Source: Candidatus Woesearchaeota archaeon
GTDB lineage: Archaea; Nanobdellota; Nanobdellia; Woesearchaeales; WAPJ01
Reading direction: 5' to 3'
DNA: 64,000 nt
NCBI GenBank assembly: GCA_047602765.1
Contig: JBLKOL010000002.1
Location: forward strand, 10,597 to 74,596
The notes beneath the pieces are model-generated. The model made no database searches. It was not told where the DNA came from and worked only from the letters and a program-made list of their open reading frames with translations. Position numbers and translations under genes: made by a program. Below, one piece after another: positions 4,877 to 25,350 of this stretch (position 1 is its first letter; each line of letters starts with the position of its first letter).

Positions 4877-7800
4877 TCACGACGAGAAAACAGAATATTT
4901 TCGTCCCGCAAAAAGGACAAACATAACGAGTGCGAGTGATGCGATGAGGAGCACGAGCGACACCGGCTCGTCTTCGATCGGTCGCGGTTCTTCGGGCAAC
5001 GGCAGATCAACGAGCGGCATGTCAACGACAGCTCCAATCCGTTCTTCGGCGACCCCTATGACGAACACACTCAGTCCCGGTGCAACAGCCACATAATAGT
5101 AGAACCCCTCCGAAAACCGAACCATCTCAGTTTCAAGCAACTCCCAGCCAGTAGCGAACCTATACAGGCCTATAGCATCAGGATGTACTCCTTCGGTTTC
5201 GATCCACACAGCGGGAACCCTGAAAGAGAATTCGACCTCGCCCGCTTCTTCAACACGGATTTCGGCGATCTCATACGTGCGACCACGGAACGGTTCGACG
5301 TGTTCAGGCACCTGTGCGAGTTCTCGGATCTCGATACGCGGTTCGATACGCGGAGTGGACAATCGCGCTTCGATACGCTCGAATGATCCGGCGCGCTCAA
5401 CGCTCACGACGTCGACCGGTTCGGATTCGGGTTCTCGATCGGGTTCGTGCGGTTCGCTCGTCGTCGCCATGCCACCGCCACCTCCTCCACCCCCACCGCT
5501 CGGAGCACCACCCGTGCTCGGCTGCGTGATTTCGATGGTGAATTCGTTGCTCTCTACCGTCACACCATCGCGTTCTGCTACGATCCGTGCGGTTCCGCTT
5601 CCCGAATACGCGCTTGGAGCGTTCAGCGTTGCGCTCGAGCCGCTGATGGTCATCGTGACGGGAAGAGTCGTGTTGAGCGAGAACGAAACATCGTTCGCAG
5701 TGGTGAAGTACGAGAGAAGATCGATCGTCCGACTCGACCCTTGATTCCATGTTTGAGCAGGGATGGTGCTCGTGGTTTCGAGCGGTACGGGTTCGGGCGA
5801 TACGATGATATCCCACGCGACGTCTGTTTCCGCAAGGCTGTTGGTTGCGCTCAGTACGAGCGTTCCGCTCTCAAACGCGTTGAAGAGGAATTCGCTCTGT
5901 GATCCCGTGGTCGGGAAGGGTCCGATGAGGTGTCCTGCTTGGGAGACTTTGTCGAGCCATACGTCGTATTCGTCTTCTTCGGCGCTGCACGGCACAGGGT
6001 CTGATCCGAAGAGCGCCGTGTTATCGGTCCATGAGGTTGCGTCAGGAGTCCACCAGTTGTTTCGAACGGTTGGCGTGCTCATCCATCCGATCGCGTTCCC
6101 GCGTCCGCTGTTGTTCTCGAAGTCTGCGCTTGCGTGCAGGTTCCAGATGTATGCTCCGACGTTCTGCGAGTCGACGAACACCAGGTCTCCTTCGGGGTTC
6201 GTCACGTATCCGCATGAGATGATCGTGTTGTTCTCGATGCGGTTGTGTGCTCCTGCGCTGATCGCGATGCCATAGTTGCTCGTCGATACGACGTGATTGT
6301 TGTATGCGTGGAGGTATCGGTTCTCGCTCGTTCCGTCTCCGAGCATGATCCCACCACCCGAGTACGATCCGTGTTCGGGGTCGAGCGGGTAGGCTCCTTG
6401 GAAGTAGTTGTCGTGTATCCGGATCGGATCACCTGTTCTTCCCGAGGTTCGGTAGAGGCTGACGATGTCTTCGACGAAGCTCTCGTACGGCTCGTTGATG
6501 ACCTGGTTCCATGCGACTCGGGTGTTCGTCATGTTCCTGCTCTGGTCGAATTGGACGAATTGGACGTAGTGGACTCCTGAGAACCCTCCACTCCCATCGG
6601 ATATGCGTCCGTCGATGTTGCGCACCGTGTTCTTGAGGATCTGTACGGTTCCTCCGTGGGTTGAAGGGTGCATGTGCAGGTAGACTCCGCTCGTGTTCTC
6701 GAGGTGTGAGTGTTCGAGGAGCAGGTACGTGTAGCTGTCGAGGGCGATGAACCGCCCAGGGTACCTTCCTGCCTGTTCGGGTCTCACGCCGATGCCTTCG
6801 ACGTTTCGTACCGTTACGTTAGCGACGTATTCCGGTGGCGAGTAGATGTGGGTTGCGACGCTTCTCGTTCTCGAGTTCTCGATGGTTACGGGCTCGCTTG
6901 TTGCGATCGTTACGGCAGCAACGTCCGGGTCGGTGCTCTCCCACGATCCGCTGTAGGTTCCTCTTTCGGTGATCGTGATCGGCGAATCATAGGATTGTGC
7001 GCTCGTGGTCGTGAACGTCCAGTCGAACGTGACGGTTCGTCCTTTGACGTCGCTCGCGTTCGCACTGAACGTGCGTGTTTCGTTGTGTTCGAGTTCGATC
7101 GTTCCCGGCTGTGGATGTGCTTGGACGATCGGCCCCACAGCTTCTATGGTGAGGTCCCACGATTCTGTTACGTTCGAATCCTGGTTGGCGACTACCACGC
7201 GCACCTCGTAGAGAGCAGGGTCGAGGTCCATGCCATCGATCGTGACGTTCGACTCGTTCCCGAGCGGTGTTCCGTTGAGCGTCCACGTATAGTTGAGTCC
7301 TTCTTCGTACGGGTCGAAGGCTTCGACGGAGAAGGTGATCGTTTCGTTCTCGAGGACCGATACGCCACCATCTTCTTGGCTGCGGCTCGTGATGAAGGGT
7401 GAGGGGTCGATGATCGTGATCGTATATTCCTGTTCAGCAGATCCGTGTGTCTCAGTCTCATCGTGTCTGACCCGAACCGAGTACGAACCGGGTGCCATGA
7501 ATGCTTCGGTGTGGTTGATCGTCGTATTCGAGGCGTTGATGAACACGTCGTCGATGAAGAGTTCTATGATGGATCCGCTCGTCAGGTTCGCATGGATCGT
7601 TGCGTTGACAACTCCCACGTGTGTCAGGTTCGAAGCGTTGCCGTTGATCGTAACGTCGAATAAGGATTCGTATCGAGCGTGGAACGTTTCGGTGACGTGC
7701 GATTCTGTGCCGCTCGTCGTGTTCGCATATACTGTGATCGTGTACATGCCTGCGGTGAGGTTCTCGACCGTGAGGGTTCCTGTCGGTTCGCTGCGGATGA

Positions 7801-9193
7801 TCGTCTCGTTCGGTGTCGTAAGGTTCACTCGTGTCGTATCGAGTTCTCCTCCTGTTGTGATGCTCCACTCGAACGTCCAATCGGAATCGGGTTCGGGCGT
7901 GCTATCATACTCGAGGAGTATGGCTGGCGAGAACGTATCGAACGCTGATACGAGTCCGAATGCGTCGATCCGATGGTACGTTGTATCCGAGGCGCTGTCG
8001 TAGACGGGTACACCGGTTGCGATGAGTGTGTAGAGCGCTTCTGCAGGCGTCACGCTCAGATTCTGCCAACGCACGTATTCGTCGAGAAGCGCAAGGGCTC
8101 CGGATACGTGCGGTGTTGCCATGCTCGTTCCCGACTTGCTCTGTATGCCGCCGGGCACGGTCGAGCTGATAAGCACGCCGGGAGCGAGGATGATGTCGTC
8201 GAATGTTGCTGCGCGATTCGTGAATGCTGTGATCGCGTCGTTCGAGAGCGTTGCGCCTACGCGCATCGAATTGCTCGCGCACGCAGGGAATGAGATGCTC
8301 GAGTTCGAACCGGTGTTTCCCGTCGCTGATACAACGCTGATGTTCTGAGCGACCGCATCATTGATCGTGGCGACCCATGAAGACACCCATCCATCACATG
8401 GGCTCATGAACCGCTGTCCGGTTCCAAGACTCATACTGATGACTGAGATGTTGTACTCGTCTTTGTACGTCGTACACCATTCGACGCCGTGCATCGCGTC
8501 CGAGATGAAGCCATCGCCGTTCTCATCGAGGGATTTGATCGCGATGATCTTCGCTCCGGGAGCCACTCCCGTGACGGATCCGTTCGCGGCGATGATGCCG
8601 GCGACGTGGGTTCCGTGACCCTCATCATCCCACGGGTCATCGTCATCGTTGACGAAGTCGTATCCTCCGATGACTTTACTACACTCGCCTGCGAGGAACT
8701 CGGCGCTCGTACATCCTCCGAGCGACGGATGCGTATAGTCGACGCCGCTGTCGATCACGCACACCGTGCTTCCGGCTCCCGAGAGGGTGACGCCCTCAAA
8801 ACCCAGATCCCATACGGCGCTCGTGTTGATGATCTCGCGACTCGTCGAGAGCATGGTGCTCACGCGTACATCTTCGAAGATGCTCTCGATCCCAGGGTCC
8901 TTGCTGAGCTGTTCGAGCTGCGAGCGGGTGACCATCCGTGCTTCGAACCGCGACGCGAAAGCGCGAGGAAGCCGCTCACTCATGATTCGCATTCCTCGAT
9001 CACGTGCGTTTTCGCGGTACGTGATGACGACGCGTACCTCGTCTTCTGCTTCGAGGGTTTCGACGAGTGCTGGATCCACAGAAGCTACGAGTCCGGTCGG
9101 CTCTGGCTCGGAGTAGTAGACGAGCACGGCGGCTCCTGCGATGAGGAGAAGCAACGCGACGCGCACACCCCGATTTACGACTGACGAGCCCAT
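4877..9193 (-). CDS. Secreted S8 subtilisin-like serine protease with I9 propeptide, Ig/PKD-like repeats, a right-handed beta-helix (pectate-lyase/CASH-like) region, a Gly9 linker and a C-terminal transmembrane anchor.
   Basis: N-terminal signal peptide. Catalytic triad motifs VIDSGVD, HGTHVAG and GTSMATPHVSG. Beta-helix-like NxxxxS/T-rich repeats. C-terminal LVLLIASLALVMFVLFAGRKY transmembrane segment. Confidence 0.85.
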   Translation of the reverse strand: MGSSVVNRGVRVALLLLIAGAAVLVYYSEPEPTGLVASVDPALVETLEAEDEVRVVITYRENARDRGMRIMSERLPRAFASRFEARMVTRSQLEQLSKDPGIESIFEDVRVSTMLSTSREIINTSAVWDLGFEGVTLSGAGSTVCVIDSGVDYTHPSLGGCTSAEFLAGECSKVIGGYDFVNDDDDPWDDEGHGTHVAGIIAANGSVTGVAPGAKIIAIKSLDENGDGFISDAMHGVEWCTTYKDEYNISVISMSLGTGQRFMSPCDGWVSSWVATINDAVAQNISVVSATGNTGSNSSISFPACASNSMRVGATLSNDAITAFTNRAATFDDIILAPGVLISSTVPGGIQSKSGTSMATPHVSGALALLDEYVRWQNLSVTPAEALYTLIATGVPVYDSASDTTYHRIDAFGLVSAFDTFSPAILLEYDSTPEPDSDWTFEWSITTGGELDTTRVNLTTPNETIIRSEPTGTLTVENLTAGMYTITVYANTTSGTESHVTETFHARYESLFDVTINGNASNLTHVGVVNATIHANLTSGSIIELFIDDVFINASNTTINHTEAFMAPGSYSVRVRHDETETHGSAEQEYTITIIDPSPFITSRSQEDGGVSVLENETITFSVEAFDPYEEGLNYTWTLNGTPLGNESNVTIDGMDLDPALYEVRVVVANQDSNVTESWDLTIEAVGPIVQAHPQPGTIELEHNETRTFSANASDVKGRTVTFDWTFTTTSAQSYDSPITITERGTYSGSWESTDPDVAAVTIATSEPVTIENSRTRSVATHIYSPPEYVANVTVRNVEGIGVRPEQAGRYPGRFIALDSYTYLLLEHSHLENTSGVYLHMHPSTHGGTVQILKNTVRNIDGRISDGSGGFSGVHYVQFVQFDQSRNMTNTRVAWNQVINEPYESFVEDIVSLYRTSGRTGDPIRIHDNYFQGAYPLDPEHGSYSGGGIMLGDGTSENRYLHAYNNHVVSTSNYGIAISAGAHNRIENNTIISCGYVTNPEGDLVFVDSQNVGAYIWNLHASADFENNSGRGNAIGWMSTPTVRNNWWTPDATSWTDNTALFGSDPVPCSAEEDEYDVWLDKVSQAGHLIGPFPTTGSQSEFLFNAFESGTLVLSATNSLAETDVAWDIIVSPEPVPLETTSTIPAQTWNQGSSRTIDLLSYFTTANDVSFSLNTTLPVTMTISGSSATLNAPSAYSGSGTARIVAERDGVTVESNEFTIEITQPSTGGAPSGGGGGGGGGMATTSEPHEPDREPESEPVDVVSVERAGSFERIEARLSTPRIEPRIEIRELAQVPEHVEPFRGRTYEIAEIRVEEAGEVEFSFRVPAVWIETEGVHPDAIGLYRFATGWELLETEMVRFSEGFYYYVAVAPGLSVFVIGVAEERIGAVVDMPLVDLPLPEEPRPIEDEPVSLVLLIASLALVMFVLFAGRKYSVFSS

Positions 9194-9407: not shown

Positions 9408-11765
9408 GTGGTATGCTCAAAGCCTATGGTACGCGCATTCCTCGGTGAAGCGAACTCGAAGCGCTTCTCGTACGAACTCTCTAAACTCACACGGCATGCG
9501 GCGATCCTCGGGACGACGGGTTCGGGCAAGACGGTGATGGGCAAAGTCCTCATCGAAGAAGCCCTCGCCTCGGGCGTTCCGGTGATCGCCATCGATCCGA
9601 AGGGTGATCTCGGCTCGCTCGGGGTGGTGCATAAGGACTTCGACTTCCGTCCGTACGGCAAGCTCACTACGTCTCGCGCGCTCAAAGTGCGCGACCACTA
9701 CCGCCAAGCGAACATCCCATCAGGACTTGTGGATTCGCTCACGAAGGTTACGACGACGGTCTACACGCCAAAATCACAAGTGGGGCGTGCGGTGAATCTC
9801 ACGCCTGATCTCTCAGCGCCCAAGCGGTTCGCCCATCTCTCAGCGTCCAATCCGATCGCAGCCGCAGGATTCGTCGAGCCGATCGCCGCTTCGCTCCTCT
9901 CCCTTGCAGGGATCAGCGGGTCGCTCGAAGAACGTGCCGAGTCGTTCATCGCAGCGCTCATACTCCATTCGTGGAATGAGGGTCGTGATCTTGACATCCC
10001 TGCGCTCATCGCACACGTCAAGGATCCGATGATCGATGGTATCGGATCGCTGAGCGTCGGAGAAGTCGTATCGGATAAGGAGCGTACGCGTATCGCAGCT
10101 CAGCTCAATACGATCATCTCGTCTCCGGCCAAGCGCGCGTGGTCGCTCGGTGATCCGCTCGATATGGAGTCGATGCTCTCGAAAAAGACGCTTTCGGTCT
10201 TCGATCTTCGCTGGGCGACGAGCCAGTCTGATAAGCAGTACGTCGCTGAGCGTATCATGAGTGAATTGTATCGCGCACTGCTCAGCCGTGGAGGCTCTTC
10301 GAGGCTGCGTTACGTGCTCTATATCGATGAACTCGCAGGACTTCTCCCACCACCGCCGGCGAGCCCGCCGTCCAAGCGAGCCCTCGAACTCCTCGTACGA
10401 CAGGCGCGGGCCTTCGGTCTTGGTATCGTCGTAGCGACGCAGAACCCTGGTGATATCGATTCGCGTCTCTTCGGTAATATCGGAACGCGTTTCATCGGAC
10501 GCCTGCGTACGAGCATGGATATCGAGAAGGTTGCGATCGCCATGGACCTTCCTCCTTCACAGTTGCGCGAAGAGGTCTCGGCCTTGACGGCCGGAGGGTT
10601 CGTCGTGAACGATGCCGTCGACAATCGCATGAGCGTCTTACGCTGCCGTTGGCTCGCCTCGTTCCACGAAGGTCCGCTCAGCGAACGCGAGGTCGGATGG
10701 GTGAACGATGGTGCACCGGCACCGGCAGAGCCGCTTCCCAAGCCTTCACGGTCCGCTGCGGCTTCGAAGGATGCGAAGACGTCCGCGAAGGGTGCGAAGG
10801 GCCGGACGACAAGGGGCACGAACAAGAGCGGAGCAGGGAAAGCGGAGCCTTCGCGTATCGCCGGTAAGAACATCGTACGCGATGCGAAACGCGCGAAACA
10901 CACGACGGTTTCTCGTACGCAGCACCTTGCGCCTTCGGTGGACAAGCAGATCAAGAATCTGATCGGACTCGTCAAGAAGCATGCTGATGACGTACAGCTC
11001 AAGGTCGAGATATCCGAGCGACCTGCGCAGTCGTATACGCCACACCTGCGTCTTGTCGTAGCGCCCAAGCCGCTGCGCGGACTCGAGCTTCCGATCCAAG
11101 GACCGTTCGTCTTCGATATGACGAGTCGTCTCATCCCGATCGGAAACTACCTGAAGGGCAAGACGTTCTCAACGTACGTTCCATCCGATATCTCGATCGA
11201 GAAGCACGCGCGTTCGGTGATGAAGGCCGTAACCTATGCGCGTCACGAGGCGAAACGCGAACTCGCAGGTACGTTCTACGAGTCCAAGCTCACCGCCTTC
11301 GCATCACCATCACGTTCGGAGGTCGAGGATATGAACCACCGCTTCCTCTCTGAGGAGCTCACGCCGTTCTTGCGTCAGATCGATGCGAAGGCCCGGCGTG
11401 ATATCGACGATCTCAAGGCGCGTATCTCAGCCCTTCGGACCAAGCGTTCGAGCCTCAACCGCGAGCATACGATCCACCGCGCTCGTCGAGCCATGAGGCG
11501 CGTGCTCACCGATCAGAAGCTCAAGAAGCGTACGGCACAGATGCAAGAGCGCGAACGACGCATGGCGATGATCGACAAGGAGATCGCACAGCTCAAAAAA
11601 CGCATCGAAACAGTCAAAGAGCGCGCATCAGAGCAGAAGGAACGCCGCAAGGCACGCGTGTACGAGAAGGCGCACTCACAGGTACGCTCGATCCGCTATC
11701 GTCCGACGAACGACGATCTGCGCATCCACGCACAGGTGTTGCTCGTACGCAGCCGCGGACGATAA
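9408..11765 (+). CDS. HerA-like / DUF853 (YjgR)-family P-loop ATPase with a ~340-aa Lys/Arg-rich coiled-coil C-terminal extension.
   Basis: Walker A AILGTTGSGKTV followed by VPVIAIDPKGD. Walker B VLYIDELAG. VVATQNPGDIDSRLFGNIGTRFIGRL motif. GTG at 9408 or ATG at 9426 as start. Confidence 0.75.
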   Translation: MVCSKPMVRAFLGEANSKRFSYELSKLTRHAAILGTTGSGKTVMGKVLIEEALASGVPVIAIDPKGDLGSLGVVHKDFDFRPYGKLTTSRALKVRDHYRQANIPSGLVDSLTKVTTTVYTPKSQVGRAVNLTPDLSAPKRFAHLSASNPIAAAGFVEPIAASLLSLAGISGSLEERAESFIAALILHSWNEGRDLDIPALIAHVKDPMIDGIGSLSVGEVVSDKERTRIAAQLNTIISSPAKRAWSLGDPLDMESMLSKKTLSVFDLRWATSQSDKQYVAERIMSELYRALLSRGGSSRLRYVLYIDELAGLLPPPPASPPSKRALELLVRQARAFGLGIVVATQNPGDIDSRLFGNIGTRFIGRLRTSMDIEKVAIAMDLPPSQLREEVSALTAGGFVVNDAVDNRMSVLRCRWLASFHEGPLSEREVGWVNDGAPAPAEPLPKPSRSAAASKDAKTSAKGAKGRTTRGTNKSGAGKAEPSRIAGKNIVRDAKRAKHTTVSRTQHLAPSVDKQIKNLIGLVKKHADDVQLKVEISERPAQSYTPHLRLVVAPKPLRGLELPIQGPFVFDMTSRLIPIGNYLKGKTFSTYVPSDISIEKHARSVMKAVTYARHEAKRELAGTFYESKLTAFASPSRSEVEDMNHRFLSEELTPFLRQIDAKARRDIDDLKARISALRTKRSSLNREHTIHRARRAMRRVLTDQKLKKRTAQMQERERRMAMIDKEIAQLKKRIETVKERASEQKERRKARVYEKAHSQVRSIRYRPTNDDLRIHAQVLLVRSRGR

Positions 11766-12762: not shown

Positions 12763-14337
12763 GTGATACTCATGACAGCAGGCGGATTCGTACTACACGA
12801 CGGAAGACAGGTGCATTCGATCTCAGAGCTCGTATCCGTGCTCGAATCGATGGATCCTACTACGTATGCTCACTATTGTAACGAGTACAAGAACGATTTC
12901 GCGTCGTGGATCCGCACGGCGTTGCACGAGTCCCAACTCGCCGATATTCTCGAAGAGACACAGAATCGTGAAGCTGCGATCAGCGTTCTGCGCACGTACG
13001 TGAGACTCCACGCTCCAGAGGACCCGTTCCGGGTCGAACACTCCGAATCGGATCGCAAGAAGTTCTTCTTCCACAAGAAGCCATCCCGCTCTGAGCCAGA
13101 TGACCCTGCACGTGTCGCACCGCCTGAACCTCCACAACCCGTCTCGATGGACAAGCAGATGTTCAAGGAAGCCGACATAAGGTTCGAACCCGAGCAGCCG
13201 ACACAACCGGTACAGGAACCAACCCCTCCGGCAGAGCCGCAGCCGACACCACCACCAGTTCAACCCTCTCCACCACCTGTAGGCAGCAATCCTGATGCTC
13301 CGTACGAGCCGCACGCCGCGAAGGGCGCTACGCAGTTCACGGATTCCGGAGAAGAGGTACTCACCGAGACCGTGGTCGAAGAGTATGCTGAGACGCTCCA
13401 TGCCATGCGCTCTGAGATCAACAAGGTCTTCATCGGTCAGGAGGAGATCGTCGAACAGGTGCTCTTGTGCCTCATGTGCGATTCCCATTCGCTCCTCGAA
13501 GGAGTACCTGGACTTGCGAAGTCGCTCCTCGTAGAGACGCTCACGCACGTCGTCGACGGGACGAAGTTCAACCGTATCCAGTTCATCCCCGACCTGCTCC
13601 CTTCAGATGTCATCGGAGGTCAGATCTACAATCCGAAGACGCAGGAGTTCACTGTTATCAAAGGTCCGATCTTCGCGAATTTCGTGCTCGCAGACGAGAT
13701 CAACCGTGCCCCTCCCAAGACACACGCAGCGGTCATGGAGGCGATGCAGGAGAAGAAGATCAACATCGACAAGGAGGAGTTCGACCTCGACCCGCCCTTC
13801 CTCATCATCGCAACACAGAATCCGCTCGAGAACAAGGGAACGTACGAGCTTCCCGAGGCCGTTCTCGACAGGTTCATGTTCAAGCTCGATCTCGACTACC
13901 CGTCGCGCAAAGATGAGAAGATCATCATCACCGAGAACGCTACGACGAAGAAGTACGAGAAGCAGGCGGTCCAGAAGGTCGTCACCAAAGAGCGCTTCTT
14001 GCAGATGCAGCGCAACGTGAAGAACGTGTACCTCTCTGAGCGTATCCGTGACTACATCCTCGACCTCGTAGAAGCCACTCGTGGTATCAATAAGGACATC
14101 GAAGGATACCAGTTCGTCAAGTACGGTGCTGGTCCGCGTGCGTCGATCTACCTCGGTATCGGTGCGAAGGCTCGTGCGATCATGCAAGGCCGAAACTACG
14201 TCTTGCCCGACGATGTGAATTTCGTGGCGAAGCCGATCATGAGGCATCGCGTCGCGCTCAACTTCAAAGGTAAGGCTCACGGTATCAAGTCGGATCGCAT
14301 CGTCGAGGAGATCCTTCATAAGGTCACGACTCTTTGA
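12763..14337 (+). CDS. MoxR-family AAA+ ATPase with a ~200-aa N-terminal extension (NDFASW domain plus Pro/Gln-rich linker).
   Basis: C-terminal 320 aa carry MoxR hallmarks (GVPGLAKSLL Walker A, FVLADEINRAPPKTHAAVMEAMQEKKI, ATQNPLE). The N-terminus is paralogous to the 12374..12700 ORF. Confidence 0.85.
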   Translation: MILMTAGGFVLHDGRQVHSISELVSVLESMDPTTYAHYCNEYKNDFASWIRTALHESQLADILEETQNREAAISVLRTYVRLHAPEDPFRVEHSESDRKKFFFHKKPSRSEPDDPARVAPPEPPQPVSMDKQMFKEADIRFEPEQPTQPVQEPTPPAEPQPTPPPVQPSPPPVGSNPDAPYEPHAAKGATQFTDSGEEVLTETVVEEYAETLHAMRSEINKVFIGQEEIVEQVLLCLMCDSHSLLEGVPGLAKSLLVETLTHVVDGTKFNRIQFIPDLLPSDVIGGQIYNPKTQEFTVIKGPIFANFVLADEINRAPPKTHAAVMEAMQEKKINIDKEEFDLDPPFLIIATQNPLENKGTYELPEAVLDRFMFKLDLDYPSRKDEKIIITENATTKKYEKQAVQKVVTKERFLQMQRNVKNVYLSERIRDYILDLVEATRGINKDIEGYQFVKYGAGPRASIYLGIGAKARAIMQGRNYVLPDDVNFVAKPIMRHRVALNFKGKAHGIKSDRIVEEILHKVTTL

Positions 14338-15245
14338 GGGAACGCATGGAGAAGAATGATTCGAGCATTCCGGTCAACATGTTCGATTTCGAAACGCTCA
14401 TGCGCGAGACGGTACGCGAGTCCGTCAAGCTCCTCGAATACTTCCGCCTCAGCCTCATCTACTACCAGCTCGTATCGGGTAAGGGTCTTGAGTTCGACCG
14501 TATCCGCGAGTACCACCCCGGTGCCGATCCGCGTCGTATCGACTGGAAGATCTTCGCCAAACGAGGAGAGCTCAAGATCCGCGCGTTCAAGGAAGAACGC
14601 CATTTCGACATCATTATCGTGCTCGACGTTTCGGATACGATGCTTCTGGGTACGACGTCGATGACCAAGAACGAGTATGCTGCGATCGTGGCCGGAGCGT
14701 TGACGTTCGCGGCGATCGAAGCGTCGGATAACGTGGGGCTCGTGATGAACTCTTCGAAGGTTTCGCTCGCTACGGATCCGACATCGGATTTCGCCAAGAT
14801 CATGGCGGAGGTCGCGAACACGGATAACTATGGTGGCGAGAAGGACTGGGATAATCTCGTGCTCAACCTCACCGGTAACTACACGGAGGATTCGATCGTC
14901 TTTGTGATATCGGATTTCATCGATACGAATCCCGAACGGTTCTTGCCCGAACTCTCAGGCCACTTCACGAAGGTATATGGTATCATGGTCCGTGATCCTT
15001 CGGATAACGAGATCCCCCCAGGTGTGGGACGCATGTACCTTCAGGATGCCGGTGGCAAGAAGATGTACCTCACGGACTTGGACCACGTGCGCGAGGAGTA
15101 CGCACTGCTCGCTCGCCGGCAGATCGATCTGATACGCGATTCGTTCCACAGCTACGACCAGCTCTTCTTCGAGATCACGACGCTCGGAGAGTTCGCTGAG
15201 GAGTTCATCAAAGCCCTCGGATCCGAAGAGGTGATCGTATCGTAA
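14334..15245 (+). CDS. DUF58 family protein (MoxR partner).
   Basis: 4-bp overlap with the moxR stop (ATGA). Typical DUF58 length and position between MoxR and the VWA protein. Confidence 0.75.
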   Translation: MRERMEKNDSSIPVNMFDFETLMRETVRESVKLLEYFRLSLIYYQLVSGKGLEFDRIREYHPGADPRRIDWKIFAKRGELKIRAFKEERHFDIIIVLDVSDTMLLGTTSMTKNEYAAIVAGALTFAAIEASDNVGLVMNSSKVSLATDPTSDFAKIMAEVANTDNYGGEKDWDNLVLNLTGNYTEDSIVFVISDFIDTNPERFLPELSGHFTKVYGIMVRDPSDNEIPPGVGRMYLQDAGGKKMYLTDLDHVREEYALLARRQIDLIRDSFHSYDQLFFEITTLGEFAEEFIKALGSEEVIVS

Positions 15246-15265
15246 CCGCACAACTCGGAGGATTC

Positions 15266-16216
15266 GTGCTCGACCTGTACAATCCGTTCGAGAACCTCAT
15301 GCTCCTCGTCTTGCTCTTGGTATTCACCACGCTCGCCTTCTACAGTTTCACGTTCCTGCGTAAGAAGCGCGCGTCGCGCTTCGGGAACATCAAGACGCTC
15401 GAACGCGTCCACGGCTTCAAACGCTTCCACATCTCTCCGGGCATCTTGATCATCAAGCTCTTCGTGGTAAGCCTGCTCTTTCTCGTCGCGACGGATTCGG
15501 TGCAGGTCTCGCGGTTCCAGCCGACTGCTGATACGGATTACGTCCTCTTGCTCGACACGTCTCCTTCGATGACCCAGACGGATCTCAATCCGAGCAGGCT
15601 CGGAGCAGCTAAGAACATCGCAACCGACTGGCTCAGAGTCGTTCCCAACGGAACCCGTGTGGGCCTCGTATCCTACAGTCGCGAACTCGGATCCACGGTA
15701 GACCCGACGTTCAACAAGGAGCATATCCGCTCCGAGATCGCTCGTGTGGAGGTCGATCTCAACCAGACGGATACGTCTCCGGATTTCGCCATCCAATACG
15801 CTACGAACATGCTCAACGATTCTACGAACAAACGCGCGGTGCTCCTCTTCACCGATGGAACGCAACCGGTTGATCCTTCGACCATCCGTCTCGCCCAGAA
15901 CCTGAACGTTCGTATCTATGCGTTCGGTATCGGAACCGAAGAGACGCGCGAGTTCGACCTCTCGGACATCCCCGAAGAGTTGTGGGATACGTTCGATCGC
16001 CTCGAGTTCAACTTCTCACGCCTCCAATCCCTCTCCGAAGCGACGAACGGAACCGCATACCACATCGGCAGCCAAGACGACCTTCGCCAAGCCTTCCGCG
16101 ATGCGACGTACGAGGAAGCGGCTATCCAACTCAACAGCGCCTTCTACGTGCTCATCCTCATAGCCCTCATTTCGATCCTCGAACTCTTCGTCTACGCACA
16201 CTTGGGTGGAATCTAA
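15266..16216 (+). CDS. VWA-domain membrane protein (BatA-like).
   Basis: N-terminal and C-terminal transmembrane segments. VWA MIDAS-like LLLDTSPSMTQTD motif. Completes a MoxR-DUF58-VWA operon. Confidence 0.8.
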   Translation: MLDLYNPFENLMLLVLLLVFTTLAFYSFTFLRKKRASRFGNIKTLERVHGFKRFHISPGILIIKLFVVSLLFLVATDSVQVSRFQPTADTDYVLLLDTSPSMTQTDLNPSRLGAAKNIATDWLRVVPNGTRVGLVSYSRELGSTVDPTFNKEHIRSEIARVEVDLNQTDTSPDFAIQYATNMLNDSTNKRAVLLFTDGTQPVDPSTIRLAQNLNVRIYAFGIGTEETREFDLSDIPEELWDTFDRLEFNFSRLQSLSEATNGTAYHIGSQDDLRQAFRDATYEEAAIQLNSAFYVLILIALISILELFVYAHLGGI

Positions 16217-18605: not shown

Positions 18606-18806
18606 TCAGAATAACGGTACGACGTTAGCTATGACGAGGATCGTGTAGGTTACGAGTCCGACTTCGACTGCGATGATCAGGTACTCCCACCATGCGAATG
18701 AGAGTTTCGGTCGCTCTTCGTCTTTAGGTGATGCTCCTGCTTTTCCGTAGAACCCTCCTTTGACGTCGGTGTCGAAGAGATCCGGTTTGTCGTCGTAGAA
18801 TCCCAT
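18606..18806 (-). CDS. Small membrane protein (66 aa), last gene of the surface-protein operon.
   Basis: GGAGGAGG immediately upstream of ATG 18806. C-terminal transmembrane helix. Start abuts the stop of the upstream gene. Confidence 0.5.
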   Translation of the reverse strand: MGFYDDKPDLFDTDVKGGFYGKAGASPKDEERPKLSFAWWEYLIIAVEVGLVTYTILVIANVVPLF

Positions 18807-21260
18807 CTAGTACCTCCTCCTGCGGATCACCCATACGGTGAGCAGCGTCCATGCGGCGAGTATGATCATGAGGATGGAGAAGCTGAGCGGGCGGTCGAGG
18901 AATCCTCGTTCTTGGATGAGGAGGGTTACGGGTACGAATCCTACGAGTCGTCCTTCTCCGTCTTCGAATCGCAAGTGGTAGTCGCATACGTCTGATCCTG
19001 CCGATCGGAACGTGTAGGTGAGTGCTGATCGTTCTCCGACTTCGAGCGAGCCCGATCCAGTGATGTCGCTGAGGCACGGTGTCGGGTCGAATCTGATGGT
19101 GATGTCGTCGAGCGGGTTGTCTCCGATGTTCTCGATGAGGAAGCTTACGTCCTGTCGGGCGTTGGGAGGCATGCGTATGACCGGTGGATACTCGATGACT
19201 CTGAGTCGGTAGAGGTCTCCTCGGGGGAGTACGATGACGCGTAGTACGTCTCTGAGGACGCGGTTGCGGCTCAGCCCGTCTGCGGAGTCGACGTATACGT
19301 CTACGGGTATGAAGTATTCTCGTGGTGTCGCTCGAACGTCGGGTGAGAGCAGGTACGAGTCTGACACGCGCTCTCCCGGAGGGAGCTGGAGGAGTCGGAA
19401 TATCTCAGCTTCCCATTCTCGTGGTACTTGGGTTTCGATCGAGATGTTGCGTGCGCTCGTTCCTCCGACGTTCGTAAGGTTGAAGTCTACGCTTCCGATC
19501 TCTCCTTGTCGGAGCGTGATGTTCTCTGGGAGTTCGAGTTCGAGTTCTACGATCTCGGGGAATACGTCTACTTCCGGTATCTCTACGGGTGCGCTCGGCG
19601 TTCCTCCCGCTCCTGTGCCGCTTCCTGCCTGTGGTTGGGGCTGTGGTTGAGGTTCTGGTTCGGGTTCTGGTTGTGCGAACGTCGATTCGAAGGCGTACGG
19701 TGCGAATACGGAGAAGTCTGTGATGTTGGTGGGTGAGAATACGATGCTCATCTGTGGTGCTACGAGTGTGAAGAGCTGTTCCCACTCTCCATCGGTCCAC
19801 GAGCTGTGGTTCGACTGGTTCGACTGGTTCGTCGCGTTGCCGTTCGTCACGTTACCTATCGTTTGGTTGACCGGTCCGATGTAGGTTCCGTTGAATTTGA
19901 AGATGCTCACGTTGTCGATGACCGCGTCGTTGGGAAGCGGTTCGCTGTACTTGAAACCGATCTGTACCCACGAGTTAGGTCCGTTCCTGATGAATTCGAC
20001 CCAGTGGCCTATGTCTGTGATGTTCGTGATGTTAGGTGGTGGTGGCGGGTCGGGTACGGGTCGTACGAGTGCGTCTGCGAAGGAGGCGTTGAGTACGGAC
20101 GTTGAGAAGTTCGTTTCGAAGAGCCTGACCCTCGAGTTGCCGGATGCGTTGATGTCGTTGTCTTCGTTGGAGAGGATCATGGCTTCTGCGATGAGTACGT
20201 CGGATTGGTTTCTGATGAGCACGCCGGTATTGTGGAATACGGCTGACTCTCCGAATATGGCGACCGAGCTGTTCGTCACGCAGAGTCCGTAGCGGAACTG
20301 TGCGGTCTTCAGGTTCTCAAAGGTGATACCTTGGCTGTTGCGCACGTCGACCGGGCATCGTCCAGGGGCTTTGCTCCCTGCCGGATCGTTGTCTCCGTGG
20401 ATCTGCTCTCCGACGAAGTTGAGTACGATGTTCGATGCGTTCTCTACGATGACGCACGTTTCGTTGACGTTGTTGATCGACTTGTTGAGGATGTAGTATC
20501 CTGATTCGTTGAGCGGTTCGCATGGCTCGTATACGAGTACTTCGAGGCTCAGGATGCCGTTGACGTAGATGCGTTCTCCTCCTTGGAAGCTTCCGTCGAA
20601 GAGTATGAAGTCGTCTTGGTTCATGATCGAGCGTTCGATGACCGAGTCGTTGGCTGCTACGATGGAGGTGACCATCTGGCGTTCGTTTCGCGTGATCGGC
20701 ATGCCGGTCTCGTCGAATACGGTGTCGATCGTGATGAAGTACTGTTTGGGAGGTCCTCGTACTTCGATGCCGATCCGGAACGAGCCGTTGAGCAGCGTAT
20801 CGAGGGGTTCGAAGTCTGAGATGACCGTCTCGTTCGTCGCGTTCTTTCTGATGATGAACGGTGTCGGATAGCCGGGGTAGAGGCTGTTGAGGCTTGAGAG
20901 GTCGACGTCTACCGACGAGCAATACTCGGTGCCTACGAGCGTCACTTCGTGTACGCGGGGTTTGAAGTTGAGCAGGCTCCATTCGAGTTCTTTGTCTTCT
21001 GATACGAATCGCAAATCGATGCGATCATCGACTTGGAGGTCCGGATGGCATATGTCGAGTACGACGTCCGGGTTCGTCGGGCTCTGGTCGATGTAGGCGT
21101 CAGCTCCGAAGGTCGCAGGGTACGATGCGTTGTAGACCGATCCTGAACGGTCGTATCTGAGTTCCAATACGGGTGTGCCGTCCTGGGTGACGAGGCTCGC
21201 GTTCGCTGCGAGCGCGGTGGGTACGAGGAGCAGTACGAGCACGAGCCATTTCATGGTCAT
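18807..21260 (-). CDS. Secreted cell-surface glycoprotein with beta-helix (NosD/CASH-like) repeats, very many N-x-S/T sequons, a PEPEPEPQPQPQ linker and a C-terminal transmembrane anchor with RRRRY tail.
   Basis: Signal peptide MTMKWLVLVLLLVPTALAANA. More than 30 N-glycosylation sequons. C-terminal LSFSILMIILAAWTLLTVWVIRRRRY. Confidence 0.8.
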   Translation of the reverse strand: MTMKWLVLVLLLVPTALAANASLVTQDGTPVLELRYDRSGSVYNASYPATFGADAYIDQSPTNPDVVLDICHPDLQVDDRIDLRFVSEDKELEWSLLNFKPRVHEVTLVGTEYCSSVDVDLSSLNSLYPGYPTPFIIRKNATNETVISDFEPLDTLLNGSFRIGIEVRGPPKQYFITIDTVFDETGMPITRNERQMVTSIVAANDSVIERSIMNQDDFILFDGSFQGGERIYVNGILSLEVLVYEPCEPLNESGYYILNKSINNVNETCVIVENASNIVLNFVGEQIHGDNDPAGSKAPGRCPVDVRNSQGITFENLKTAQFRYGLCVTNSSVAIFGESAVFHNTGVLIRNQSDVLIAEAMILSNEDNDINASGNSRVRLFETNFSTSVLNASFADALVRPVPDPPPPPNITNITDIGHWVEFIRNGPNSWVQIGFKYSEPLPNDAVIDNVSIFKFNGTYIGPVNQTIGNVTNGNATNQSNQSNHSSWTDGEWEQLFTLVAPQMSIVFSPTNITDFSVFAPYAFESTFAQPEPEPEPQPQPQPQAGSGTGAGGTPSAPVEIPEVDVFPEIVELELELPENITLRQGEIGSVDFNLTNVGGTSARNISIETQVPREWEAEIFRLLQLPPGERVSDSYLLSPDVRATPREYFIPVDVYVDSADGLSRNRVLRDVLRVIVLPRGDLYRLRVIEYPPVIRMPPNARQDVSFLIENIGDNPLDDITIRFDPTPCLSDITGSGSLEVGERSALTYTFRSAGSDVCDYHLRFEDGEGRLVGFVPVTLLIQERGFLDRPLSFSILMIILAAWTLLTVWVIRRRRY

Positions 21261-21559
21261 GACCCGATTACGGTTTCGAGGAACGCGGTGTAGCTGTGGT
21301 AGACGAAGTCGAGGACTTGGCTGATGATTTCGCGGCGGTGGATCGTCTTCGCGGGGTACGGTCCTTGGAAGGCCGGGTCGGCGATGTAGAAGGGATACTG
21401 TTGGGTGAGTACTCCGTCCACGACGAACGTGAATTCTTCTCCGTCCTCTTGGCGTCCGATCATGGAGAGTTCGTATCCGCCGATGTAGTTCTCAAGATCG
21501 GTGTAGTTGTATTGTGGGAGGTAGAGTTTGTTGTAGGTCGGCATGAAGTAGAGCGACAT
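21257..21559 (-). CDS. Small hypothetical ORF, probably the frame-shifted C-terminal portion of the upstream 371-aa secreted protein.
   Basis: Overlaps the 3' end of 21492..22607 by 68 nt in another frame. The open frame continues upstream of its Met with protein-like sequence (…ITFRTDYSGAMSLYF…). Confidence 0.4.
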   Translation of the reverse strand: MSLYFMPTYNKLYLPQYNYTDLENYIGGYELSMIGRQEDGEEFTFVVDGVLTQQYPFYIADPAFQGPYPAKTIHRREIISQVLDFVYHSYTAFLETVIGS

Positions 21560-22607
21560 CGCTCCTGAATAGTCGGTTCTGAACGTGATCGATGTTTGTG
21601 AACGCGAGGGTGTCGATGTTTCCGCGGTTCCGGTACGTTACGAGGAGCACGTTCGCATCCGTGTAGCGCACTACGGATTCTATGACGAGATCAGCGCTCG
21701 GGTAGTCTACGAAGAACGTTTCAAGGTCGAGGATCTGTCCGGTCATGCCCGGAAGGTTCGTGATGGTCCGTCCGTATTTGAGCATGAGCGCGATGTCGCG
21801 TCCTGCTCCTGAGCGGATCTGTTGTCCGAGGTTCGCAGCGTCAGCGCTCACGATCTCGAACCGGTTCACGTTGATGTCTCGTACCGTTGCGATCGTATCG
21901 GCGAGCATACCTGAGTAGACGACGACGGGTTGTCGTTTGAGGAGCGATTCGTAGTCGACGCGGTCGACCCTCATGATCACTCCCCACTCAGCGTTGAAGC
22001 GTTCGGATACCATCCGTGTGATATCATCGGCGTTCGTGGGGCTCAGTTGTTCGTAGCGTTCTTCGGCGTCGATGCCTTCTACGAGCCGGACGGGAAAGCG
22101 TCCTGCGATGATGATGCGCTCTGCGCTGCGCGCTGCGCGTTCGACGTCATCTCGGCTCTCTTCGTCGAGGAAGAAGGGGCGCATCGGCGCGTGTCCTGCG
22201 AGCGGGAGGATCGAGATGGCTTCTGCTCCGAACTTCGGGTCGAGGAGGACGAGCGCTTCGTACCGGTCGGTGAAGTGGTCTCGTTGGAAGTCGCGGAACG
22301 TTCCTGATTCGTGCACCGTGAAGTCTGTGAAGCCGTTCGTGCGCAGTACGGATGCGTAGTTTCGCACGATGGGTCGTGAGGATTCGAATACGACGATCGT
22401 CGAGTTGGGTCTGATCGTCTGTGTCTTGATCTGAGCATCTCCAAGGTTGGTGAACGAGACGATGTTCGCCTCGTGTTGTATCGCGTATACGGTTCCGAGC
22501 GTGACGTCACGCCAGTCTCGGCTGTTCACGACGACGACATCGGTCGCTACTGCTGCGTATGCGCTCACGAGCAGGAGCATGACGATGAGTACGACGCGCA
22601 TAGGCAT
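21492..22607 (-). CDS. Secreted protein with three ~100-aa alpha/beta repeats (CWB2-like cell-wall-binding-type triple repeat), paralog of 22641..24344.
   Basis: Signal peptide. Three internal repeats. N-terminal domain alignable to 22641..24344 (VNSRDWRDV / VSDSREWTDV; TIVVFESSRPIVRNYASVLRTNGFT / TIEVYESSERPFVRNTAQKLRSAGYT). Confidence 0.7.
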   Translation of the reverse strand: MPMRVVLIVMLLLVSAYAAVATDVVVVNSRDWRDVTLGTVYAIQHEANIVSFTNLGDAQIKTQTIRPNSTIVVFESSRPIVRNYASVLRTNGFTDFTVHESGTFRDFQRDHFTDRYEALVLLDPKFGAEAISILPLAGHAPMRPFFLDEESRDDVERAARSAERIIIAGRFPVRLVEGIDAEERYEQLSPTNADDITRMVSERFNAEWGVIMRVDRVDYESLLKRQPVVVYSGMLADTIATVRDINVNRFEIVSADAANLGQQIRSGAGRDIALMLKYGRTITNLPGMTGQILDLETFFVDYPSADLVIESVVRYTDANVLLVTYRNRGNIDTLAFTNIDHVQNRLFRSDVALLHADLQQTLPPTIQLHRS

Positions 22608-22640
22608 CGCTGGCGATTCGTGCTTATTAAACTATGCGGG

Positions 22641-24344
22641 TCAGCGTCTCGTTTTGACGTAGAAGAACATGCCGAGTGCTGCGATGACTAGGAGCGCGAT
22701 GAGTCCTGCGACGGCGGCTCCTGCTCCTCCGGTGACGAGTCCTGCGAGGAGTCCTCCGCTCTTCGTCTGGAAGGGTACATCCTCGGTGATTCTCAGGAGC
22801 AGTGCGTCTTGGCTCGCTCCGTAAAGGATGTCGATCGAGAGCACGTCGTTCTCTTGCATGTCGATCTCGTCGAGGCGTACGGGCAGGTACGTCGTCTTCT
22901 CTTCGCCAGCGCGGATGCGGTCTTGTGAGAAGAGGTCGGTGGGCAGTCCGTTGACGAGGATCTGTTGTACACGTACGTTGTAGTGTGCTTGTTCGCTCCC
23001 GGTGTTCTTGATGGTAACGCCTACGCGTCCGAGTCTCGGGTAGTATGCTGCTTCGACGAGTTCGAGCGATACGTCTCCTGCATCTACGGTCTCGACGGTG
23101 AGCGGGATGGTGAACGGCGGCCCGAACCGGTTTTCCATGGTGAGGAAGGTGTCGAGTTCGCTCGGAGTGAGTCCGAAGGACGTGAAGAATTCCGCTACGG
23201 TCGAGTCATCGATACGATCGATCGGTATCGAGACGGGGTAGCGCTTTGCGAACACCTCTCCGGTTCCCAGGTAGTTGATCTCATCATCGGATACGGCTGC
23301 GACTTCTTCATCTCCGGTTTTGACCGAGATGGTCGTCGTCTCGTATAACCCGATGTTTCCGATGTTCTCGAAGAATGCGATGAGTTCTTCGGTCGAGGGG
23401 TCGTATACGGCTCTCTGGATGGTGAGTCCGAGGAGCGGTTGGGGCAGTGGGAACATGGTGAGCGCATAGATGCGTCCGCTCGCCTGCGTATCTGACTGTC
23501 CGAATTTGATGAACACACCGATGCGGCGTTCTGATCGTTCTCGGATCTGTTCCCCTACGACGGCGAGCCGGTTCCCTATGACGACGACGCTCCTCACATC
23601 ACGCGAGAGGATCCATTCGTACGTCTGTTCGGATACGCGATTGTATCCTACGATGATCACCGGTGATTTCGCGGTGAAGAATTCTGATTCGATGCTGAAT
23701 CCGTCTGCGAGTATGATGTTGCTGTGCGAGTCGTATCTGTCGGCGAGGATCTGTGATTCTGCGAATACCGAGTCTTCGCGGATCCACTCATCGAAGGTGC
23801 CTTCGATGCGGCTGAGCAGGTCTCGTCTGAAGCTTCCGACGGCTACGACGCTCTGTGCGCCTTCGAGCCGTTGTGCGATCTCGTCGATGTTGCGATCGTT
23901 CGCGATGAGTACCCATCTATCTTCGGCGACGGCTATGGGTGCTACGGCTACGCCGATGCGATAGTAGTCTTCGCTGATGACGAAGTAGCGTCCGTTCTGC
24001 GGGTCGAGGTCGAGGTTGAACGATGCGCTGCGCGTATCATCCGCTACGGTGTATCCTGCGCTGCGCAGCTTCTGAGCGGTGTTTCTCACGAAGGGGCGTT
24101 CGCTCGATTCGTAGACTTCGATGGTGGCTCGCTCACTCACCGTGCGCAGAAGGCCCGTGAGCGTTTCTGAGTTGAGGAATACGGCTCTTCCGTCGTTCAT
24201 CGTGCTGTGGAGCAGGACGCTGTAGACGTCCGTCCACTCGCGCGAGTCTGAGACGGCGATGGTATCGGCGGTTACAGCGGGGAGGATGAGAAGTCCAGCG
24301 AGGAGCATGACGGCTAACAACCCTCCTCGTCCGTTTTTAACCAT
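22641..24344 (-). CDS. Secreted triple-repeat surface protein with C-terminal Gly/Ala-rich transmembrane anchor (KTRR tail).
   Basis: The track start is GTG 24419. The likely true start is ATG 24344 (MVKNGRGGLLAVMLLAGLLILPAVTA signal peptide). TTTATAA box ~37 nt upstream. Confidence 0.75.
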   Translation of the reverse strand: MVKNGRGGLLAVMLLAGLLILPAVTADTIAVSDSREWTDVYSVLLHSTMNDGRAVFLNSETLTGLLRTVSERATIEVYESSERPFVRNTAQKLRSAGYTVADDTRSASFNLDLDPQNGRYFVISEDYYRIGVAVAPIAVAEDRWVLIANDRNIDEIAQRLEGAQSVVAVGSFRRDLLSRIEGTFDEWIREDSVFAESQILADRYDSHSNIILADGFSIESEFFTAKSPVIIVGYNRVSEQTYEWILSRDVRSVVVIGNRLAVVGEQIRERSERRIGVFIKFGQSDTQASGRIYALTMFPLPQPLLGLTIQRAVYDPSTEELIAFFENIGNIGLYETTTISVKTGDEEVAAVSDDEINYLGTGEVFAKRYPVSIPIDRIDDSTVAEFFTSFGLTPSELDTFLTMENRFGPPFTIPLTVETVDAGDVSLELVEAAYYPRLGRVGVTIKNTGSEQAHYNVRVQQILVNGLPTDLFSQDRIRAGEEKTTYLPVRLDEIDMQENDVLSIDILYGASQDALLLRITEDVPFQTKSGGLLAGLVTGGAGAAVAGLIALLVIAALGMFFYVKTRR

Positions 24345-24380
24345 TCGCACGTGCCCCTTGGGTGTTCTCGCCCTTCGACC

Positions 24381-24388
24381 TTTATAAT
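24381..24388 (-). promoter_or_regulatory. TATA-box-like element (TTTATAA) for the minus-strand surface-protein operon.
   Basis: AT-rich hexamer in a GC-rich context, ~37 nt upstream of ATG 24344. Confidence 0.35.
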
Positions 24389-24825
24389 CGTTTCGTCGCC
24401 CAGCGAGAGCAACACTCACGAGTAGTGACGATTAGGACCTTATATATGTTTGGGGGACGCTGATCGGTCGAACCACGAGGTGTGCGCCCCTCGAAACGAT
24501 CCGAAACCAAGCCGAGCCCTATCAGTGCTCACAGACCACGCAGATTTCAAGACCTTGCTTCGAGAAGCCGACACACTGCGCCCGTATCTCTACAGGTTAG
24601 CCTCTCACGCGACAGCTGCAGGTACGAAACCGCCTCTTCAGCGTATCTAACACTAAGATACGCAGGGACGCGTTCAGAATACGAGTGGAAGGCCTGCAAT
24701 ACGTTCAGCCATGTGAATACGTATCCGGCAAGGATCATGAAGTACCGTTTCACGAACTGCGAGCAGAAGAACCGTCGGATCGGAGAAGGATGAGAAAGGG
24801 TTGAAGAAAAAGGTTTCACACAGCA

Positions 24826-25095
24826 CTACGGCAGTTCGAGGTAGAAACTGTACGTTTCGATTCCGCTGTCAGCTGGTGCGAGGAGCTGGTAGTCGATCGT
24901 GCTTCCATCGAATCCGACTCCGTCGCCTACGGCAACCGCTGCATAGACGTTCCGACCGTCTGCTGTCAGTGCGAACGTGTTCCATACGGTCGTGTCGTTG
25001 CTGAACGTCGTCACGAATGGAGCGTCCGCGATACTTAAGGTGGCGGACGTGAACGTATCCGTGTCATGCACCTCTTTGTTCGTCAACCCAACCAT
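24826..25095 (-). CDS. Hypothetical 89-aa protein.
   Basis: Protein-like composition (beta-rich, Asp/Thr/Val). TTATAAATA box ~75 nt upstream on the minus strand. Confidence 0.35.
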   Translation of the reverse strand: MVGLTNKEVHDTDTFTSATLSIADAPFVTTFSNDTTVWNTFALTADGRNVYAAVAVGDGVGFDGSTIDYQLLAPADSGIETYSFYLELP

Positions 25096-25350
25096 ACGGG
25101 TCGGGCAAACACTGTTTTATGCAGTTTAATACACTTTTTTGTATATCAGTAATGCTTCTATTTATAACAGTTTGTTTTTATCACACTATATTTCCAGAGA
25201 ATCAGCCCGTCGACAGGTCGAGTACAGCGGATCAACACACCAGGATACACACACTTCTACACCCACTCACCGTCGAGAACCACAACTCAGAGGCACAGAT
25301 TACGTCACCTACCGATACACACGAGAATACTCACGACGAGACGAACACCA

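Follow-up and report, generated by a model that had tools for sequence, protein, structure and literature searches.

In Clostridioides difficile, the CWB2 domain (PF04122) of proteins such as Cwp6 (PDB 5j72), Cwp8 and SlpA consists of three tandem alpha/beta units of ~90 amino acids (aa); it serves as the wall anchor of the Cwp proteins, where it accompanies an enzyme or surface-layer (S-layer) domain. In the Firmicutes CWB2 proteins (Cwp6/Cwp8, SlpA) the domain binds wall polysaccharide, an anionic polymer, non-covalently, and we take the CWB2 trimer to be the only three-unit alpha/beta module of Cwp6. On the archaeal side, SlaA and SlaB of the Sulfolobales constitute a two-component S-layer with a membrane-anchored stalk protein, and the SPEARE proteins of Nanohaloarchaeum antarcticus are giant surface proteins of a DPANN archaeon. 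For Woesearchaeota-type DPANN archaea, the cell envelope has hardly been characterised. Here we describe a cluster of surface-protein genes in a 64,000-nucleotide stretch of a metagenome-assembled genome (MAG) of a Candidatus Woesearchaeota archaeon (GCA_047602765.1, contig JBLKOL010000002.1, positions 10,597 to 74,596; hereafter the window). The first gene, g1, is predicted to belong to a divergent archaeal branch of the CWB2 proteins with a new architecture, while its paralogue g2 carries what looks like a frameshift; with good confidence, we regard the latter as the scar of a deletion at short microhomology that joined two surface-gene modules, which is the best explanation of the locus as a whole.

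The cluster comprises the following features, in window coordinates:

g1: 22641..24344, minus strand, intact 567-aa open reading frame (ORF) for a predicted type-I membrane protein.
g2 (g2′ in its present form): 21492..22607, minus strand, 371-aa ORF, a truncated paralogue of g1.
Deletion junction: 21576..21602, minus strand, switch from g2-like to 584-gene-like DNA.
584 stub: 21257..21592, minus strand, remnant made up of the last ~111 codons of a 584-aa family and containing the 100-aa ORF 21257..21559.
g3: 18807..21260, minus strand, 817-aa ORF with a signal peptide and a C-terminal transmembrane (TM) segment, a glycoprotein candidate.
g4: 18606..18806, minus strand, 66-aa ORF with a single C-terminal TM segment (aa 40–66).

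All five minus-strand ORFs lie where the original prediction, made from the DNA letters alone, had placed them, and the reading of the locus as a cell-surface or envelope gene cluster of an archaeon is supported, NCBI labelling the MAG Candidatus Woesearchaeota. The genes are tightly packed, with, from g1 to g4, a 33-nt spacer, an overlap, a 4-nt overlap and direct adjacency. That g1 and g2 are paralogues was likewise borne out (23% identity over 316 aa, E 6e-15). A Pfam scan of the five ORFs returned no match for g1, g2, the 584 stub or g4, and no S-layer family matched any of the five.

The original prediction joined g2 and the overlapping 100-aa ORF into a single gene split by a 1-nt frameshift at 21575–21600. 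The anomaly lies exactly where it had been placed, and two of the observations behind it hold: g2 lacks an anchor and ends in a non-native tail, its last ~31 codons differing from those of all orthologues, and the frame of ORF 21257..21559 continues open and protein-like 5′ of its Met, back to ~21620. The single gene itself does not stand, since the two frames match two different families. When the two were fused into a ‘repaired’ query, residues 1 to ~340 matched proteins of 540–544 aa, and the last quarter matched the C-termini of a separate set of 567–599-aa proteins. The g2 orthologues are 540–556 aa long with a C-terminal TM anchor and agree with the window copy only to codon ~340; past the motif NRGNIDT..TNI(E/Q) they continue for ~200 further residues, which hold a second immunoglobulin-like (Ig-like) domain and close with a hydrophobic TM anchor and an RRR tail, all of which the window copy lacks. 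Thus, codons 1 to ~340 of g2′ are native and encode the signal peptide, three CWB2-like units and the first strands of the first Ig-like domain, and its last ~31 codons (21492–21587), rich in Arg, Leu and His, come from the remnant of the 584-aa gene read out of frame.

The 100-aa ORF, for its part, starts from an internal Met and lacks a signal peptide. It ends exactly as the 584-aa family does (...FRTDYSG..YFMPTYNKLYLPQY...AFLETV.GS), a family of 581–599-aa proteins that have a signal peptide of their own and, in some members, a CARDB match. By tblastn the stub is 80.6% identical to aa 461–584 of the family member in L002 (L numbers denote related contigs and loci). When profile hidden Markov models were run against all window ORFs, g1 covered positions 7–562 of the 563-position g1/g2 profile, g2 covered positions 7–342 only, and the 584 stub covered positions 469–588 of the 588-position 584-family profile.

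A single frameshifted gene, whether through error, mutation or programmed +1 frameshifting, would agree with the overlap of the two frames and with their protein-like character near 21575–21600. However, no homologue spans the whole of the fused protein, of which the first 75% and the final 25% match different families; the window g2 is without the ~200 residues with which its orthologues carry on; the stub is the C-terminus of proteins that bring their own signal peptides; and the site has no slippery or stop-stalled motif. We therefore give this explanation next to no chance, and its programmed form is ruled out by the two different parental genes together with the missing slippery motif. 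At the DNA level, comparison with the g2 orthologue of L001 and the 584 orthologues of L002 and L005 shows g2-like sequence to the left of a TCGA core (21589–21592) and 584-like sequence to its right; the core is common to both parental orthologues and lies inside AACATCGAT (21588–21596). The deletion thus has one end in codon ~341 of g2 and the other in codon ~470 of the 584-aa gene, both at this short microhomology. The two stubs meet one base out of register, and it is because the two stumps are out of frame that the junction looks like a frameshift. No orthologue has the two ORFs overlapping in this way. An insertion in the relatives, rather than a deletion here, was ruled out because the architecture is complete in the paralogue g1, in every g2 orthologue and in every 584 orthologue.

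Could the junction be an assembly artefact, a chimeric contig in which two loci were misjoined at a short repeat? The window does come from a MAG, and giant repetitive surface genes of the kind found in relatives often break assemblies, with the contigs of L012, L013 and L003 ending in them. Against this, independent assembly of at least 23 sequencing runs gave this junction each time, on contigs of up to 82 kb with identical flanks; the shared junction sequence of at most 9 nt is too short to mislead a k-mer assembler; and no near-identical undeleted g2 was found in a collection of 5.8 billion proteins, in which the next best match is 79% identical. We consider an artefact very improbable. 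The exact 369-aa truncated g2 product is present on 27 contigs, and 31 carry the stub ORF (separate runs SRR324568xx plus the NCBI MAG); six contigs that we compared are identical to the window across the junction, and the Logan contigs are 100% identical to the window except for a TG indel in g3. NCBI lists both stubs as ordinary hypothetical proteins (the 584 stub as ACMXYM_00805 and truncated g2 as ACMXYM_00810), so that reading them as remnants has a bearing on annotation. A profile search of genome and metagenome contigs with the g2 alignment found no relatives, whereas the g1 alignment did find relatives among genome contigs.

Relative to the nearest relative, the ratio of nonsynonymous to synonymous substitution rates (dN/dS) of the stubs (0.11 for the 584 stub, and 0.155) equals that of the intact genes (0.10–0.20), at a dS of 0.7–1.3. 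Most of the divergence therefore accrued under selection, and the deletions are young. Taken together, these results indicate that the deletions at this locus are real and recent. Out-of-frame stubs, nearby lesions and a low stub dN/dS are likewise features of microhomology-mediated gene decay in reduced symbiont genomes, and the decay itself is ordinary.

The gene order in relatives reveals what the deletion brought together. Module A, seen in L001, L003, L004 and L012–L015, runs from the genes of a 225-aa and a 219-aa secreted paralogue through g1, g2 and a ~245-aa protein (233–257 aa) to giant proteins of 1,084 to 4,331 aa. Module B is a second conserved unit, seen in L002, L005, L016 and L017: one or more giant proteins, a 547-aa protein (547–564 aa), the 584-aa protein, g3 and g4, followed by a 143-aa gene and a VWA/DUF58/MoxR operon as at 12.7–18.1 kb of the window. 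Conserved N- and C-terminal regions common to the giants tie the end of module A to the start of module B. The giants carry Laminin_G_3 (lectin-like), Ig-like (Big), CARDB and DUF2341 domains and form variable tandem arrays. In their size (1,000–4,300 aa) and secretion these counterparts of the deleted genes resemble the SPEARE proteins, a likeness of description that serves as context only, as the window contains none of the giants. In L018 (NCBI GCA_964444505.1), a distant relative, both modules are complete. Accordingly, the five-gene operon of the original prediction is not a native unit: two conserved modules were joined by a deletion, and the apparent operon is an accident of that event.

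Profiles of the 245-aa, the 547-aa and the giant N- and C-terminal families matched nothing anywhere in the 64-kb window, from which it follows that in this lineage the whole interval between codon ~341 of g2 and codon ~470 of the 584-aa gene is gone. The deletion took the Ig-like domains and anchor of g2, the 245-aa gene, all giants and the 547-aa gene, together with four fifths of the 584-aa gene. For the nearest relative, summing gene lengths over two contigs (L012 + L002) puts this interval at ~30 kb; the conserved genes alone would give ~5 kb. The contigs of this nearest relative population agree closely (L012 and L001 are 99.7% identical, L002 and L016 99.9%), and L001 and L016 come from one metagenome.

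Upstream of g1, where the window is 81% identical to the corresponding region of L012, lie the traces of a second deletion and the promoter elements:

TATA-like box of g1: 24381..24387, minus strand, TTATAAA on the coding strand, ~37 nt 5′ of the g1 ATG.
219-aa gene remnant: 24826..25095, minus strand, 89-aa ORF holding the last ~80 codons, without a signal peptide.
Putative promoter and 5′ leader of the lost 225-aa gene: 25068..25190, minus strand, 123 nt, conserved in relatives.

The TATA-like box is the TTTATAA (plus strand) that the original prediction had noted, and it is present at 24381–24387. The 89-aa ORF corresponds to positions 147–227 of the 227-position 219-family profile and is joined, at ~25059–25077, to the promoter and leader of the missing 225-aa gene; the second deletion thus took the 225-aa gene and the 5′ two thirds (~140 codons) of the paralogous 219-aa gene. 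The leader is 96% identical to L012 6199–6321, compared with ~76% for the flanking genes, and this conservation contrasts with the near-saturated synonymous sites of its neighbours. It contains a B recognition element and TATA box (BRE/TATA, AAACTGTTATAAAT), a 7-bp hairpin (CCCGACC-CGTAT-GGTTGGG) and a GAGGTG; aligned with L003 and L004, the hairpin has one compensatory change, in L004. It is probably the strong promoter and structured leader of an abundant surface protein.

A third lesion affects g3, at one further feature:

TG-indel polymorphic site in g3: 19789..19792, minus strand, window has the intact allele.

Here, a TG insertion (GATG[TG]GAGAG) splits g3 into fragments of 500 and 314 aa. 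The split form occurs in 20 of 23 assemblies (20 Logan contigs), and the intact allele is found on two Logan contigs and in the NCBI MAG. Contig L008 ends exactly at this site. In all sampled assemblies only g1 and g4 are free of lesions. The spread of the g3 frameshift fits relaxed selection after the loss of the partners of g3, and because the first deletion took the region upstream of the 584-aa gene, g3 and g4 would now be expressed only by read-through from the g1/g2 promoters.

The g3 protein itself shows a real excess of N-x-S/T sequons, as had been claimed, with 29 where composition-matched shuffles give 7.1±2.4 (at most 20 among 2000 shuffles), so the excess stands while the count of more than 30 does not. 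The hinge that had been pointed out is present as the Pro/Glu/Gln-rich linker PEPEPEPQPQPQPQ at aa 531–544, and two Ig-like domains with significant matches follow (NPCBM_assoc at 585–651, HYDIN-like at 702–761). A beta-helix, by which g3 had originally been described, was not confirmed: of its nine homologues (36–82% identity, always 3′ of a 584-like gene), seven match NPCBM_assoc and one matches PF13229 weakly (1.7e-4), the window protein giving no match to PF13229, and the sole hit of a PDB sequence-profile search with the g3 alignment is a sialidase Ig-like domain. A beta-helix core in g3 is possible on this evidence. The small g4 is kept 3′ of g3 in L002 (74%), L017 (52%) and L018 (42%). 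The perfect Shine-Dalgarno-like motif assigned to it, GGAGGAGG, is present at 18813–18820, where the same bases double as the terminal RRR (Arg) codons of g3.

We turn to g1, the gene that the deletions spared. Its AlphaFold2 (AF2) model, from a 33-sequence alignment, has a mean predicted local distance difference test score (pLDDT) of 87.4 and a predicted template modelling score (pTM) of 0.77, and shows, in order, a signal segment, three beta-alpha units, a flexible linker, two beta-sandwich domains and a TM helix. By AF2 secondary structure the three units (aa 28–280) span 28–106, 119–188 and 209–280; they resemble one another weakly in sequence (hhalign P 0.002, 0.022 and one non-significant value). 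The Ig-like beta-sandwich domains, at 307–417 and 427–524, are related to each other (hhalign E 4e-5), and the Gly/Ala-rich C-terminal TM helix (542–566) carries a KTRR tail. The model agrees with the originally proposed signal peptide, three alpha/beta repeats and Gly/Ala-rich TM anchor, and adds the two Ig-like domains, which had gone unmentioned. Full-length homologues with 40–85% identity occur in Woesearchaeota/Nanobdellota MAGs, and with a dN/dS of 0.105 against the nearest relative, g1 is the slowest-evolving gene of the cluster.

In a Foldseek search with full-length g1, beta-sandwich matches (transglutaminase, RbmA) dominated and the N-terminal module was not addressed. Since this search saw only the Ig-like part, the N-terminal domain was modelled alone (pLDDT 89.3, pTM 0.87). 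Against the PDB, its first-ranked Foldseek match is C. difficile Cwp6 (5j72_A, E 7.4e-5, probability 1.0), which is also the sole match at E≤1e-3, the next having E≥0.015. The alignment, a moderate match, covers 269 columns of 276 residues with a TM-score of 0.49, a root-mean-square deviation of 5.3 Å and 14% identity. PDB sequence-profile searches with the g1/g2, N-terminal domain and 219-family alignments gave no meaningful matches. Among close family members PF04122 matched 1 of 20, at 0.0047, and among distant members (profile E≤1e-33) it matched 16 of 61, one of which, P0150, passes the gathering cut-off of 24.9 bits with a score of 26.7. These matches in distant members support CWB2 homology transitively, not directly. 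The Cwp6 fold match and the PF04122 matches thus back the ‘CWB2-like’ label given to the triple repeat, and sequence and model together point to the g1 family as a divergent archaeal CWB2 branch with a new architecture. There are also differences from the clostridial proteins: g1 has its own C-terminal TM anchor, with the module placed membrane-distally; two Ig-like domains follow the module in place of an enzyme or S-layer domain; and, unlike Clostridioides, the host of g1 is an archaeon without peptidoglycan or the polysaccharide II (PSII) polymer.

The family is broad. A profile search with the N-terminal domain recovered 531 clusters at 50% identity, of which 178 reach E≤1e-30; almost all members are 550–600 aa long and carry the CWB2-like domain at the N-terminus. 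At least 99 GTDB species representatives, under the labels Woesearchaeota, Pacearchaeota, Nanoarchaeota or Nanobdellota, have a member. Over the 80 loci that we inspected (L019–L098), the gene is single copy in 71, the g1–g2 tandem being restricted to the nearest clade. Genes of the 219/225-type cluster (for example L021 5040–5786 and L065 3–5966) adjoin the g1-type gene in 69 of the 80, commonly directly upstream and on the same strand. The 219/225-type proteins are secreted, sequon-rich and ~220 aa long, with the motifs GGNVT...W.GF.GN.SG...YYFYLEL; neither Pfam nor the PDB yielded a match, and the same cluster also holds ~2,000-aa proteins in the same position. The titles of several family-bearing genomes (L019, L024, L027, L030 and others) read ‘uncultured Methanosarcinales archaeon’ or ‘Acidobacteriota bacterium’, probably because DPANN contigs were mislabelled or mis-binned. 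Literature searches on CWB2 or cell-wall-binding domains in DPANN archaea or Woesearchaeota found nothing specific, and as far as they show, neither a DPANN-wide membrane-anchored CWB2-like family nor a multiply deleted variant of its locus has been described.

This arrangement is reminiscent of SlaA/SlaB, in that the gene of a secreted glycoprotein lies directly 5′ of that of a TM-anchored beta-sandwich stalk protein, the gene pair being conserved across the clade. Unlike in the Sulfolobales, the partner here is small (~220 aa) and g1 lacks sequons; the likeness is one of gene order and architecture. Most likely, g1 is the core envelope protein of the clade: its C-terminal helix would hold it in the membrane, the two Ig-like domains would serve as a stalk, and a pseudo-trimeric CWB2-like module on top would bind a glycan or glycoprotein. 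By analogy with lattice-plus-anchor pairs such as SlaA/SlaB, its most likely partner would be the sequon-rich 219/225-type protein, whose gene lies just upstream in most DPANN genomes, with a host glycopolymer as the main alternative ligand, and the giants would form the variable, adhesin-like part of the surface.

The distal position of the module also suits a different role, in which g1 is a host-binding adhesin that grips the cell-wall glycopolymer of the host and no component of the cell's own envelope; CWB2 binds wall polysaccharide in Firmicutes, and DPANN archaea are typically ectosymbionts. However, g1 is the slowest-evolving gene of its cluster; unlike host-range adhesins, it is a single-copy gene of fixed architecture in at least 99 species from many habitats; and the variable neighbouring giants suit the adhesin role better. 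We hold a purely host-directed g1 to be unlikely.

As for g2′ and the 584 stub, most likely both are pseudogenes. An intact signal peptide and CWB2-like module (profile positions 7–342) and a TATA-like box of its own, TTTAATAA, kept in the 33-nt spacer, would nevertheless allow g2′ to function as a secreted protein in continued association with g1 or its ligand, in which case the deletion streamlines the envelope. Moreover, as a lineage-specific duplicate that 71 of the 80 related loci lack, g2 is dispensable or adaptable. But the break falls inside the first Ig-like domain (strand 333–343 of the g1 model), leaving a ~70-residue tail that is non-native or unfoldable, and the two further lesions at the locus form a pattern of decay, not of design. 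A functional g2′ has perhaps one chance in a few, and we prefer to regard g2′ and the stub as pseudogenes.

Several points weigh against our account of the locus. First, g1 has no sequons at all where 2.6 are expected (g2 has one, and g3 in the same cluster has 29), and the absence of N-glycosylation sequons is unusual for a classical archaeal S-layer protein. Second, the TM-score to Cwp6 is 0.49, and the window copies of g1 and g2 give no PF04122 match at E≤1, below the Pfam threshold for CWB2. Third, because no contig spans g2 through the 584-aa gene, we infer the ancestral adjacency of modules A and B, and the ~30 kb, from L012 and L002, which have no DNA overlap, and from the flanking synteny of the window; L018 arranges the two modules differently; and copies of the lost genes could exist beyond the 64-kb window. 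Finally, glycan binding, the partnership with the 219-type protein and the pseudogene status of g2′ are functional statements that we infer.

Elsewhere in the window, the operon for a MoxR-type AAA ATPase, DUF58 and VWA proteins (12763–16216, plus strand) adjoins module B, as it does in all the relatives inspected (L002, L016, L017 and L018), which suggests a conserved association with surface-protein genes. Within a few kilobases of the cluster there are also genes for a 1,438-aa subtilase-domain (Peptidase_S8) protein (4877–9193, minus strand) and for a 785-aa HerA/FtsK-like ATPase (9408–11765, plus strand), a HerA-like gene being likewise placed in L017. An Rfam scan of the window returned one tRNA and nothing else.

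Collectively, the g1 family joins a bacterial-type wall-binding trimer to an archaeal-style membrane stalk, as predicted from sequence and model, and is a candidate core component of the envelope and a candidate for glycan-mediated attachment. We tentatively propose, as a suggestion with odds clearly against it in its full form, that the family is the anchor of a two-component envelope in Woesearchaeota, Pacearchaeota and related DPANN archaea, holding the ~220-aa protein or a host glycopolymer, and that the population studied here is a natural multiple knock-out. Three independent lesions at one locus amount to a natural experiment that shows which of its surface genes such a symbiont can do without. 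If the proposal is true, this population would be living without its 219/225 proteins, the g2 anchor, the giants, the 547/584 pair and, mostly, g3, yet persisting in more than 20 samples, and it would reveal which parts of the envelope are dispensable.

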